From Escherichia coli (lineage in GTDB: Bacteria; Pseudomonadota; Gammaproteobacteria; Enterobacterales; Enterobacteriaceae), in NCBI RefSeq assembly GCF_030013595.1, contig NZ_CP122768.1: 64,000 nt of DNA; one strand, written 5' to 3'. The notes under the pieces were generated by a model that had not been told where the DNA came from, did not search any database, and was given only the letters and a program-made list of their open reading frames with translations. Position 1 is the first letter of the stretch. Every line of letters begins with the position of its first letter. This document shows positions 29,250-51,374 of this stretch, one piece after another. The translations under genes were made by a program, and so were the position numbers.

Positions 29250-30839
29250 ATGAAAGTATTTCACAATATATTTAAGCACATCTCTTCAAACCATCAAGAT
29301 AAGCATCCAGATAAAGTTAACAGTCATCAACACCATGGCAAGGTTGATAAAAAACATCGTTCAAAGATAGTTGAAATTGATAAGCTGGATAAACATTCGC
29401 AAATAGATAACGATTTTGGCCTGCATATCATCTATTTCCTGCAACATGGCTGCTGGAACGTAACTGAACATAGTCCTCAGATAGAAAAACTATGGTTTTA
29501 CAATAGTGAGCCATCTATAGATATTAAAGAATATAATAGTTTCGCCGATAATACTACTGACACGTTTATCTTTACAATTATACCAGACAATAACCATGTG
29601 ATAAAATTATCGTCTCCCATTACCGTTACGATTGAGCGAAAGGACGGTTATTATTTTATTAATTTCTCCGGGGATAAATCTGACATAATTTATAAAGTTG
29701 GTGGGTTTTCTATCATAGAGAGAAATTTCTTTACTCTTCTTAGTGGTAATTTCAAACCTGACTGGCGTTGGGCTGTCTCTAAAGAGACGTTTACTAAGGA
29801 AAAGTTTGATAGCTATGTTGAATCTGTTTTTTCAAAAATAGACTTTTATAAACAGTGTGGTGTGATTAACCCAAAAAATCCCAACACGGCTTATTTTGGC
29901 GATACAGATGGAAGAGTGGGCGCTGTACTTTATGCATTGCTCGTTTCAGGGCATATAGGCATCAGGGGAGAGGGGTGGAGTTTATTATGTCAATTATTAA
30001 AACACGAAGACATGGCTTCATTCGCATATGAAAATAAAAAATTGAAAAAACTCTTCACTTTATTAGATACGAGAGACATGATCTTGAATGAGTTGCATCA
30101 ACATGTTTTTTTAAAAGGCGATGCGATTACCCCTTGTATCTTCCTTGGGGATCATACAGGCGATAGATTTAGTACTATTTTTGGTGATAAATATATCCTT
30201 ACTTTGCTAAATTCTATGCGAAATATGGAGGGTAATAAAGATAGTCGTATAAATAAAAATGTCGTCGTTCTGGCTGGAAATCATGAAATCAATTTTAATG
30301 GTAACTATAGTGCACGACTAGCAAATCATAAACTCTCTTCCGGTGATACATATAACTTAATTAAAACGCTCGATGTTTGTAATTATGACTCAGAAACGAA
30401 AGTTTTAACCAGTCATCACGGAATAATAAGAAATGAAGAAAATGAATGTTATTGTCTAGGTGCTTTGCAGGTTCCATTTAATCAGATGAAAGACCCAATT
30501 GATCCTGAGGAATTAGCAAATATATTTAATAAAAAACATAAACAACACATGGATGATCGTCTTATCCATCTAATTAGAAGCAATGCTATAGCATCCACAC
30601 CTGTATATGACAATTATTTTAATAACACTACTGCTTTCAGACCAAAACCTGAAGATATCTTCAAATGTGGACAGACGCTCAAAAAAAGTAAACAGAAATA
30701 TGGCCATTATGGATTAGGGGTAGATCAGCATCAAAAAATTGATAATTATACCATGGGGCTAAATTCCTGGAAGATAGCACCTAACGAACGTGGTGATAAA
30801 AAAGGTGTCCCAGGGCTTAGTTGTTTTCAATCTCATTAA
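29250..30839 (+). CDS. DUF4049-family protein, intact YhiL/YhiK-type; paralog of YhiJ
   Basis: 529 aa AT-rich ORF (start trimmed to MKVFHNIFKH); shares YFGDTDGxVGAVLYAL, FLGDxTGDRFS, LAGNHE and HHGI motifs with yhiJ. Confidence 0.7.
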   Translation: MKVFHNIFKHISSNHQDKHPDKVNSHQHHGKVDKKHRSKIVEIDKLDKHSQIDNDFGLHIIYFLQHGCWNVTEHSPQIEKLWFYNSEPSIDIKEYNSFADNTTDTFIFTIIPDNNHVIKLSSPITVTIERKDGYYFINFSGDKSDIIYKVGGFSIIERNFFTLLSGNFKPDWRWAVSKETFTKEKFDSYVESVFSKIDFYKQCGVINPKNPNTAYFGDTDGRVGAVLYALLVSGHIGIRGEGWSLLCQLLKHEDMASFAYENKKLKKLFTLLDTRDMILNELHQHVFLKGDAITPCIFLGDHTGDRFSTIFGDKYILTLLNSMRNMEGNKDSRINKNVVVLAGNHEINFNGNYSARLANHKLSSGDTYNLIKTLDVCNYDSETKVLTSHHGIIRNEENECYCLGALQVPFNQMKDPIDPEELANIFNKKHKQHMDDRLIHLIRSNAIASTPVYDNYFNNTTAFRPKPEDIFKCGQTLKKSKQKYGHYGLGVDQHQKIDNYTMGLNSWKIAPNERGDKKGVPGLSCFQSH

Positions 30840-48608: not shown

Positions 48609-48828
48609 ATTGTACCTTTTTGATTAACCATTGGGGTGAGGGAACCCAATACGTACGACACGTCTGTTACCTTAACATAATAACGTGCTGACCCTTTTTT
48701 CGAGCCGCCGCATGATACTGCTTTACGTTGACAATGCAATGGTTAATTTTCACGCAATCGTTAACCTGGTTTGCTTACGGACTCACAGGGCGTAAACTAG
48801 CGCCGTTTTTTTATGTGATGAGAAGAAA

Positions 48829-49074
48829 ATGACCGATCTCTTTTCCAGCCCTGACCACACACTCGACGCACTTGGCCTGCGCTGCCCGGAACCAGTAATG
48901 ATGGTGCGCAAAACAGTGCGCAATATGCAGCCAGGTGAAACGTTGCTGATTATTGCTGACGATCCGGCGACGACCCGCGATATTCCTGGGTTTTGTACCT
49001 TTATGGAACACGAATTGGTTGCGAAAGAGACGGATGGACTGCCTTATCGTTATTTGATTCGTAAAGGCGGTTGA
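48829..49074 (+). CDS. tusA: Sulfur carrier protein TusA
   Basis: 81 aa with conserved LRCPEPVMM active-site Cys motif. Confidence 0.95.
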
Positions 49075-49175
49075 TGGGGGCAGATTGGCTTCGATGCCGC
49101 CTTTTCCCCTCACCCTAACCCTCTCCCCAGAGGAGCGAGGGGACCGATCGCGCTCAATGTTGCGATCGGTTTGCC

Positions 49176-51374
49176 TTATTTCCTGCGCAACAGCCTTAAC
49201 GCATTCGCCGTCACCAGCACCGTCGCACCGGTATCTGCCAGCACTGCCAGCCACAGTCCGGTCATCCCTAACAGCGTCGTGACGAGGAAAACACCCTTCA
49301 GCCCCAGCGCAATAGTGATGTTCTGGCGGATATTGGCGTGAGTGGCGCGTGCCAGTTCAATCATTTGCACCAGGCCGCGCAGGTGGTTATGGGTTAATGC
49401 TGCATCGGCGGTTTCCAGCGCCACGTCTGTGCCGCTACCCATTGCAATCCCGATGGCGGCAGCTTTCATCGCTGGCGCGTCGTTAATACCATCACCGACC
49501 ATCGCCAGCGGCGCATGTTGATTCAGCTCGGTCACCGCTTTGACTTTATCTTCCGGCAACAGGCCCGCTTTAAATTCCAGCCCCAGTTCCCCGGCGATTG
49601 CCGCCGCTGCGCGTGGATTATCGCCGGTGAGGATCACTCCTTTAACCCCCAGCGCGTTCAGTTCACTGATAGCAGTTGCAGCATCGGCGCGCAGGGTATC
49701 CTGCAACGCAATGATACCCAGCACGTCATCATTACGTACTACCAGCACTACCGTTTGCCCGGCGCTTTCCAGTTCATTAATCAAACCAGCAAATGCAACA
49801 GCCGGATGTTTTCCGGCAGCGCATATCAACACGCGCTCACCGTTAACCTGCGCTTCAATGCCAGACCCAACCAGCGCCCGCTGTGATTGGGCGGCGGGAA
49901 TGGCGAGTTCAGCAACCTGTGCTTCGCGCACAATGGCTTGCGCCAGTGGATGCGTCGCGCCTTGCTCGACCGCCGCTGCCAGTGTCAGCAGTTCGGATTC
50001 ACTAATACCCGTTGCCGGATGAATCGCGGTAACGCGCGGTTTACCGACGGTCAGCGTACCGGTTTTATCAAACGCCACCTGGGTAACACGACCCAGTTGT
50101 TCCAGCGCCGCTCCGCCTTTAATTAACGCCCCACGACGCGCTGCTGCTGCCAGCCCGGAGGTAATCGCCGCAGGCGTTGAGATAACTAACGCACACGGGC
50201 AGCCAATCAGCAGCAGCGTCAGCCCTTTATAAATCCACTCCTGCCAGCTGGCGGCAAACAGCAGCGGTGGCACCAGCGTCACCAGCAGAGCGACGGCCAT
50301 AATCGCGGGCGTATAGATACGGCTGAAACGGTCGATAAACCGCTCAATGGGTGCGCGACGCTCTTCGGCTTCTTCGATCAGTTTCAGAATCCGGTCAATG
50401 GCGCTGGCACCCGGTTCTGACAGCACTTCCAGCGTTACCAGACGGTCTACGCTGGTGGCACCAGCAGGGACTTTATCGCCCGTTGCGCGCTCCACCGGAA
50501 TGGATTCGCCGGTCAGGGCGCTTTCATCAAAACTGGCAAACGGTGAGAGCAGTTTACCGTCGGCAGGCAAACGTCCACCTGCGGCGACTTCAATCACATC
50601 GCCAGGGCGCAGGCTGTTAATCGCCACCTCTTCACGCTCACCGTTACGCAGGCGCGTGGCGGTTTCCGGTTTCAGCGCCATTAACGCGCTAACGCCCTGA
50701 CGCGCGCGGCTGGCGGCCCAGCCTTCCAGTCGTTCACCAATCAAAAACAGCAGCAACACCATCGCAGCTTCAGCCGTTGCGCCAATAAACAGCGCACCAA
50801 TAGCGGCTACGCTCATTAAGGTTTCAATGGCGAAGTAGCTGCCGGATTTGATCAGCCGTAATGCCTGACGAGCAATCGGGTACAGCCCAACCAGCGTGGT
50901 CGCGATAAACGCCAGTTGCCCGAACGGATGATTGAACTGCTCCAGCCCCCAACTGATTGCCATCAACACGATTAGCGTAATCAGCGGCAAATTCTCTTTC
51001 AGGCGTGATGTTTGCGGTTCGTCGGCGGACTGTTCATCGCGCAGGGAATAGCCCGCTTTTTGCACCGCAGATTCAACTTGTGCACGAATGTCATTGTCGG
51101 CATCGACCACCAGTTTTTCGGTGGCGAACAACACCTGCACCTGATTCACGCCTGCAAGCTGGCGCACGGCATTTTCTACCTTGCGCGCACAGGCGGCGCA
51201 GTCCATGCCGCTGACTTTCCAGCTATAGCGGGTGCCGGAGACGTTTTCAGAGAGCGTTGGCGTGCTGGAACATGCGCCGTCGCAGCAACAGTCGTTGGCG
51301 TTCTGTACCGTGGTTAGCGGTTTGAACGCAGCAAATTGAGGGGCTTTCTTGCCGTGATTGTCAGGAGTCGACAT
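49176..51374 (-). CDS. zntA: Zn/Cd/Pb-translocating P-type ATPase
   Basis: 732 aa with GMDCAAC metal-binding motif, CPC transduction motif and DKTGTLT phosphorylation site. Confidence 0.95.
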   Translation of the reverse strand: MSTPDNHGKKAPQFAAFKPLTTVQNANDCCCDGACSSTPTLSENVSGTRYSWKVSGMDCAACARKVENAVRQLAGVNQVQVLFATEKLVVDADNDIRAQVESAVQKAGYSLRDEQSADEPQTSRLKENLPLITLIVLMAISWGLEQFNHPFGQLAFIATTLVGLYPIARQALRLIKSGSYFAIETLMSVAAIGALFIGATAEAAMVLLLFLIGERLEGWAASRARQGVSALMALKPETATRLRNGEREEVAINSLRPGDVIEVAAGGRLPADGKLLSPFASFDESALTGESIPVERATGDKVPAGATSVDRLVTLEVLSEPGASAIDRILKLIEEAEERRAPIERFIDRFSRIYTPAIMAVALLVTLVPPLLFAASWQEWIYKGLTLLLIGCPCALVISTPAAITSGLAAAARRGALIKGGAALEQLGRVTQVAFDKTGTLTVGKPRVTAIHPATGISESELLTLAAAVEQGATHPLAQAIVREAQVAELAIPAAQSQRALVGSGIEAQVNGERVLICAAGKHPAVAFAGLINELESAGQTVVLVVRNDDVLGIIALQDTLRADAATAISELNALGVKGVILTGDNPRAAAAIAGELGLEFKAGLLPEDKVKAVTELNQHAPLAMVGDGINDAPAMKAAAIGIAMGSGTDVALETADAALTHNHLRGLVQMIELARATHANIRQNITIALGLKGVFLVTTLLGMTGLWLAVLADTGATVLVTANALRLLRRK

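Follow-up and report, generated by a model that had tools for sequence, protein, structure and literature searches.

The GC-Rich Element Between tusA and zntA of Escherichia coli: Almost Certainly a BoxC Copy, Joined to a Single-Copy Hairpin and Possibly Acting at RNA 3′ Ends

Introduction

The genes tusA and zntA of Escherichia coli converge on a short spacer that holds a GC-rich, structured element, and the question raised by this locus is what that element is and whether it does anything for the two transcripts that run into it. A first-pass annotation, made from the sequence alone, had described a C-rich tract, a purine-rich partner and a perfect 9-bp hairpin as one element, had seen no T-run in either direction, and had suggested a repeat-family element or a protein-binding structure. 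Here we follow up this description in a 64-kb stretch of E. coli DNA (the window, to which all positions refer unless K-12 coordinates are given).

One repeat family of E. coli, BoxC, is central to the answer. BoxC came to notice in the early 1990s near envM/fabI, and a repeat survey cited in PMC2267715 gives it a length of 56 bp and about 32 copies. It was later described anew as the “potential intrastrand triplex” (PIT) element (Hoyne and Maher, 2000, 2002) and then named TMECO (Holder et al., 2015; PMC4666352).

Results and Discussion

Layout and Folding of the Spacer

All three of the pieces described earlier are present in the 101-bp spacer (Table 1). The C-rich tract had no match at up to 3 mismatches in shuffles of the window. 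Folding of both RNA strands, a check proposed along with the first-pass annotation, yielded −45.0 and −46.7 kcal/mol for the two strands, lower than dinucleotide shuffles by z = −3.0 on each. A search of 1.2 kb against Rfam in E-value mode returned sub-threshold chance matches only (the top one, Hrs13, at 19.7 bits against a gathering threshold of 52), so the spacer corresponds to no known structured RNA.

Table 1. Features of the tusA-zntA locus, in window coordinates; the BoxC assignments are those argued for in the text.
Feature	Position	Strand	Description
tusA (sulfurtransferase)	48829..49074	+	Transcript would carry the C-rich BoxC strand
tusA/zntA convergent spacer	49075..49175		101 bp
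BoxC, full element (assigned with near certainty)	49095..49156	−	G-rich strand is zntA sense; ~56-62 nt: 5′ flank GAGCGCGATCGGTC, 36-nt core, 3′ flank GAAAAGGCGG
C-rich tract CCCCTCACCCTAACCCTCTCCCC	49106..49128		
G-quadruplex-type motif GGGGAGAGGGTTAGGGTGAGGGG	49106..49128	−	Two G blocks of BoxC
PIT/TMECO core, type A	49106..49141	−	36 nt: CCCTCGCTCC-TCT-GGGGAGAGGG-TTA-GGGTGAGGGG, a C block, then two G blocks
Purine-rich partner AGAGGAGCGAGGGGA	49129..49143		
Allelic base	49134		+ strand A (− strand T in C block); G/C in K-12 and every other copy examined
Perfect 9-bp inverted repeat ACCGATCGC-N10-GCGATCGGT	49143..49170		Left arm 49143..49151; right arm 49162..49170
T-rich tail TTGCCTTATTTC, interrupted	49171..49182	+	Follows the hairpin in the tusA sense; shares 49176..49178 with the zntA stop codon
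zntA (Zn/Cd/Pb P-type ATPase)	49176..51374	−	Transcript would carry the G-rich BoxC strand

A Copy of the BoxC Repeat

Twelve other K-12 loci, all of them intergenic, were taken by their published coordinates and gave 17 further BoxC copies, which were aligned to build a profile. In nhmmer searches this profile aligned to 49168..49073 on the − strand (67.9 bits, E = 1.9e-20), with posterior probabilities peaking over 49156..49095 and with similarity that may run weakly to ~49086. The locus itself is already catalogued: Table 1 of Holder et al. (2015; PMC4666352) lists copy no. 16, of type “A mm,” at K-12 3,608,684-3,608,719 (CCCTCGCCCCTCTGGGGAGAGGGTTAGGGTGAGGGG), and this interval falls between zntA (ending at 3,608,649) and tusA (3,608,751-3,608,996). 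The core in the window equals copy no. 16 at 35 of 36 bases, and the aligned spacers of the window and of K-12 have 3 differences in 101 nt.

On sequence grounds, the element at 49095..49156 is almost certainly a copy of BoxC, alias the PIT element or the TMECO intrastrand-triplex motif, and there is hardly any doubt that it is the tusA-zntA copy listed for K-12, joined to a single-copy hairpin. It shares with the family its sequence, a length of ~56-62 nt, GC-richness, an intergenic site and dispersed multi-copy spread, and no categorical difference separates the two; what is particular here is one derived C>T change and the recruitment of a flank into an extra hairpin. The element is BoxC by every sequence test and, since both the family and the locus of this copy are already described, it is ordinary and calls for no new category.

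Uniqueness of the motif in the genome had been raised earlier as a ground for doubt, and it is not what we found. Of 5,426 complete E. coli genomes, 5,425 contained a 48-nt BoxC segment, with 1-33 places in a genome and a median of 18, whereas a 40-nt segment of the hairpin had a median of one place per genome in the same 5,426. The guess of a repeat family is thus borne out for most of the feature. The view of the three pieces as one element needs correction, in that the hairpin segment is single-copy and only its left arm belongs to the repeat. Within the window, the profile found a single copy, at tusA-zntA, and the search for others gave nothing beyond chance (GGGGAGAGGGG at 29965; a half-site at 48631..48647, E = 2.1).

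Alignment of 20 copies showed that, on the G-rich strand, the type A copies have the 36-nt core in common and, on either side of it, the flanks GYGCNCNGANCGGTC (5′) and GAAMAGGC (3′). The conserved unit therefore exceeds the 36-nt triplex core, and flanks plus core come close to the 56 nt first quoted for BoxC.

Core Allele, Pairing and the Triplex Motif

Read on the − strand, the core at 49106..49141 is CCCTCGCTCCTCTGGGGAGAGGGTTAGGGTGAGGGG. The base pair that closes the stem between C block and G block covaries among the copies (5 of 21 have T-A there and most have C-G), which favors a paired structure in BoxC. The covariation also bears on the suggestion of a protein-binding structure, for which we found no support. 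The only hints that the element might be a protein-binding site were that the family is strongly conserved in sequence and that each arm of the hairpin has a GATC (Dam) site; no binding protein for BoxC, PIT or TMECO is reported in the literature consulted (PMC4666352), and covariation preserves pairing rather than sequence. We consider a protein-binding site extremely unlikely.

The base at 49134 distinguishes the window allele and was A in 6 of 8 diverse strains. It converts a C-G pair of the stem between the C block and the first G block (C:G1) to T·G, in a stem that already has a G·A mismatch. The predicted RNA hairpin is weakened from −18.6 to −15.0 kcal/mol in the tusA sense and from −24.6 to −22.8 kcal/mol in the zntA sense. 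Like copy no. 16, the window core consists of a C block, a 3-nt loop, a G block, TTA and a second G block. It misses the strict TMECO pattern, CCCTCNCCC-N3-6-GGGNGAGGG-N3-GGGNGAGGG, by one base (CCCTCGCTC in place of CCCTCNCCC), whereas the K-12 allele matches it, and with both a G·A mismatch and a T·G pair in its C:G1 stem it also exceeds the one mismatched stem position that the ITxF rule permits. Both rules are narrowly missed because the T·G pair adds to the existing mismatch, and the window allele falls into the class called “TMECO mutated” by Holder et al. (2015; PMC4666352).

This motif has been linked to events at the DNA level. Following Holder et al. (2015), the G-rich strand, when single-stranded, could fold into a purine-motif triplex or a G-quadruplex, stall polymerase and make the spacer a hotspot for deletion and rearrangement. 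Consensus TMECO oligonucleotides fold as an intrastrand triplex in vitro according to CD and NMR, are very stable (Tm 70-82°C), and in the full-length form were found by NMR to be a triplex rather than a G-quadruplex; in vivo, footprinting did not support the triplex (PMC4666352). The two G blocks of BoxC are the sole (G3+N1-7)x4 match on either strand of the window, but the second non-Watson-Crick position in the stem of the window allele should weaken a triplex. The variability of the locus, on which this explanation also draws, is taken up with the alleles below.

The 9-bp Hairpin and Its Flanks

The left arm of the hairpin lies inside the conserved BoxC flank and the right arm is unique locus sequence. 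The hairpin is real, but it is one of several in the window, where perfect 9-bp stems with loops of 3-12 nt gave 32 nested matches at ~14 sites against a dinucleotide-shuffle mean of 3.4. With G·U extensions the RNA stem reaches 12 pairs and −18.1 kcal/mol on the + strand. GATC sites occupy 49146..49149 in the left arm and 49164..49167 in the right, each within a self-complementary CGATCG. The full hairpin segment was carried by 4,570 of the 5,426 complete genomes (about 84%).

An intrinsic terminator would have a U-rich tract of about 7-8 nt directly after its stem. Here, 3′ of the stem, the + strand reads TTTGCCTTATTTC, a T tract that is weak and interrupted, with 3 consecutive T and then GCC, and the − strand reads CCCCTCGCTCCTCT, which has no U tract. 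The earlier statement that neither direction has a T-run is therefore right for the zntA side but not for the tusA side, where a lenient consensus scan flagged hairpin and tail as terminator-like; such sites numbered 3 in 1 kb against 1.1 expected by chance.

The flag, together with a perfect GC-rich stem of this stability in a convergent spacer, could mean that the hairpin alone is a plain bidirectional intrinsic terminator to which BoxC is irrelevant. Its likeness to a canonical intrinsic terminator lies in a GC-rich stem-loop that comes directly behind a stop codon and in some T residues 3′ of it in the tusA sense. It differs in that the T tract is broken after three T on the tusA strand and missing on the zntA strand, and in that the tables of Adams et al. 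(2021) call no 3′ end at the hairpin; furthermore, the tusA strand has a Rho-dependent region farther downstream. A plain terminator is, in our assessment, very unlikely.

Alleles of the Spacer in Escherichia and Other Genera

Within Escherichia the tusA-zntA spacer is polymorphic, ranging from 101 bp to 1.1 kb. The loci compared were L003 (275..543), L004 (276..830) and, downstream of tusA, L005 and L006. The 101-bp form found in the window is the common E. coli allele. A second allele keeps BoxC and the left arm of the hairpin and continues with ~170 bp of REP/BIME sequence, and its right arm pairs at 6 of 9 positions. A third allele (L004) has no BoxC core, keeps GGACCGATCGCGCTCAAT, and is followed by REPs and then by a 102-aa hypothetical ORF. 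This last allele had suggested that BoxC ends just left of GGACCGATCGC; this boundary was rejected, as the 20-copy alignment places GYGCNCNGANCGGTC within the family, and L004 is thus a core deletion and not an empty site. The ORF is membrane-like (WP_000385055.1, L004 490..798), and, by similarity of the spacer DNA, the GTDB reference E. coli and E. albertii each have a related one. In the 1.1-kb spacer of E. albertii, a degenerate BoxC remnant is accompanied by a REP, the same ORF and a hairpin that pairs at 8 of 9 positions around a 17-nt loop.

For other species, loci were found by a TusA-based scan of reference genomes. A Pseudocitrobacter MAG carries an intact type A BoxC at the tusA 3′ flank in the same orientation as E. 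coli, and in four Enterobacter species a type B-like BoxC, again in the E. coli orientation, lies 10-26 nt past the tusA stop (L007, L008, L010 and L012, at about 1445..1500). In Citrobacter, Klebsiella, Kluyvera, Lelliottia and Enterobacter quasihormaechei, REP-like palindromes follow tusA in place of BoxC. The spacers compared in other genera also include L016-L028, L074 and L084.

In the other alleles and species the hairpin is imperfect (6-8 of 9 pairs) and longer-looped; the perfect form is restricted to the common allele, which lacks the REP cluster of other E. coli alleles. On the simplest reading, BoxC, a loose hairpin and REPs would be old at this site, and the common E. coli allele would later have lost the REPs while its hairpin turned perfect and short-looped. 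The perfect hairpin would then be a chimera of repeat flank and unique sequence in an allele that lost its REPs, which is mildly new.

In a sample of 8 diverse, non-independent strains of E. coli, all with the common allele, BoxC and hairpin (49098..49175) had 1 variable site in 78, compared with 32 in 350 for the coding flanks (48900..49074 and 49176..49350; Fisher p = 0.017), although this low diversity could also reflect gene conversion among BoxC copies. The first 23 nt past the tusA stop held 4 variable sites in the same strains.

TMECO loci are reported to vary more than control loci (PMC4666352), and a spacer that is so strikingly polymorphic, with or without the BoxC core, the REP/BIME sequence and the extra ORF, would fit a DNA-level triplex or G-quadruplex that provokes rearrangement. 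The variable alleles also hold recombination-prone REP elements, however, so BoxC need not be the cause, and in the common allele BoxC and hairpin are unusually invariant. Taken with the footprinting and the weakened stem described above, these observations make an effect through such DNA structures improbable in our judgment.

We also looked for signs of mobility. A clean insertion with target-site duplication, as expected of a MITE-like element, was not seen when filled and core-less alleles were compared. BoxC matched 3 of 50,697 phage records and 423 of 72,556 plasmid records; with so few phage matches and several of the plasmid records being chromosome-sized, there is no sign of a mobile carrier. 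Two 174-kb records labeled “Campylobacter phage” (MG065686.1 and MG065691.1; H71 and H72) have three BoxC-like matches each at 94% identity, unexpected in a Campylobacter virus and perhaps a sign that these records include enterobacterial sequence. BoxC is not known to be linked to a RAYT-type transposase.

RNA 3′ Ends at BoxC Hairpins

We compared the K-12 BoxC copies with the curated Term-seq data in supplementary file 1 of Adams et al. (2021), with offsets checked against published coordinates. At six copies other than the one studied here, an RNA 3′ end lies 2-10 nt past the predicted base of the BoxC hairpin (NC_000913.3 positions 164636+, 624567-, 632098+, 3781065+, 4231270- and 3959467-), with lldD having its primary 3′ end at 3781065+. 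In five of these six copies the RNA is the C-rich one, as it would be in transcription from tusA. The text of Adams et al. (2021) does not mention BoxC. A further strong 3′ end, at 624680(-), lies 4 nt ahead of a BoxC core.

In the tusA-zntA spacer itself (K-12 3,608,5xx-3,608,8xx), supplementary file 1 of Adams et al. (2021) calls no 3′ end. The same study reports a Rho-termination region on the tusA strand, antisense to zntA (K-12 3607955 (-)), ~0.8 kb past the tusA stop, with upstream/downstream reads of 90/24 without and 128/100 with bicyclomycin; these reads could stem from an internal antisense promoter instead of read-through from tusA. A second Rho region, at K-12 3606645 (+), lies in the zntA sense within the first 200 nt and hints at premature termination of zntA. 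Rho-dependent transcripts have been described to end just past stable stem-loops without a U tract, to which exonucleases trim them (Dar and Sorek, 2018). In reporter assays by Hoyne and Maher, as cited by Holder et al. (PMC4666352), PIT elements had neither promoter nor terminator activity.

The 3′ ends at other copies, the Rho region past tusA, the trimming described for Rho-dependent transcripts, the folding of both strands, the low diversity of BoxC and hairpin and the recurrence of stem-loops 3′ of tusA across genera suggest a role at the level of RNA; the lack of a called 3′ end in the spacer, the reporter assays and the weakness of the T tract count against it. We infer that the paired, adjacent stem-loops may form a 3′-end structure for both converging transcripts, a proposal whose chances we put a little short of even. 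In the tusA direction, the 9-bp hairpin and its weak T tract would act as a leaky intrinsic terminator; transcripts reading through would be stopped by Rho inside antisense zntA and then trimmed by 3′-5′ exonucleases back to the stem-loops. In the zntA direction, hairpin and BoxC stem-loop would be exonuclease barriers only, since this direction has no T tract, and would act after Rho-dependent termination as REP elements do. No regulatory role specific to the tusA-zntA locus is implied. The existence of E. coli alleles without the BoxC core speaks against a 3′-end role and indicates that the BoxC element is dispensable. Taken as a whole, BoxC identity combined with this 3′-end mechanism is probably the best explanation of the locus.

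A broader form of the proposal, to which we hold only tentatively, is that BoxC hairpins in general, including that at tusA-zntA, are orientation-dependent determinants of RNA 3′ ends, either REP-like exonuclease barriers or weak terminators. As part of it, and just as tentatively, the BoxC flank may have been co-opted as an arm of the perfected hairpin after the REP cluster was lost. If true, a repeat family that has lacked a function for 30 years would have one, and the retention of a BoxC or REP stem-loop 3′ of tusA in several enterobacterial genera would be explained. The 3′ ends at BoxC hairpins, obtained by re-reading existing Term-seq tables, suggest a modest and testable RNA-level role and are mildly new.

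For such a role there is a parallel in the REP/BIME family, whose members stabilize mRNA 3′ ends and form Rho-associated 3′-end structures. Both would be transcribed intergenic repeats that form a stable stem-loop without a U tract and have RNA 3′ ends just downstream, and REPs are found at the tusA-zntA spacer of further E. coli alleles and of other genera; BoxC differs in belonging to an unrelated sequence family. A REP consensus pattern (GCCKGATGCGRCGY, up to 2 mismatches) had no match in 49075..49175, with REP-like matches elsewhere in the window, e.g., at 59334.

The 3′-end proposal has to be weighed against the view that BoxC at tusA-zntA is a neutral or selfish remnant, a non-autonomous dispersed repeat without function, and that the perfect hairpin is a by-product of the REP-cluster deletion, possibly followed by quasi-palindrome correction. 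In agreement with this view, the right arms of the alleles differ by a 7-nt deletion and by base changes that perfect the stem, the core is absent here in some E. coli, and K-12 copies sit in convergent, divergent, tandem and intra-operon spacers, i.e., in no consistent position. Published work has assigned no function to BoxC (PMC4666352), and the literature searched gave no later functional paper on BoxC/TMECO. Against it stand the Term-seq 3′ ends at the hairpins of six K-12 copies, the recurrence of BoxC or REP stem-loops 3′ of tusA across genera in constant orientation, the low diversity of BoxC and hairpin within E. coli, and the presence of the full hairpin segment in most complete genomes. 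We regard a functionless leftover as less likely than not, if quite possible.

Apart from the spacer element, a terminator-like hairpin was observed on the other side of tusA, in the divergent yhhQ-tusA spacer. It consists of GGCGTAAACTAGCGCC followed by GTTTTTTTAT, spans 48789..48804 (+) with a tail to 48814, and lies ~25 nt upstream of the tusA start codon on the tusA strand. Possible readings are a leader, an attenuator or the end of a short transcript from upstream.
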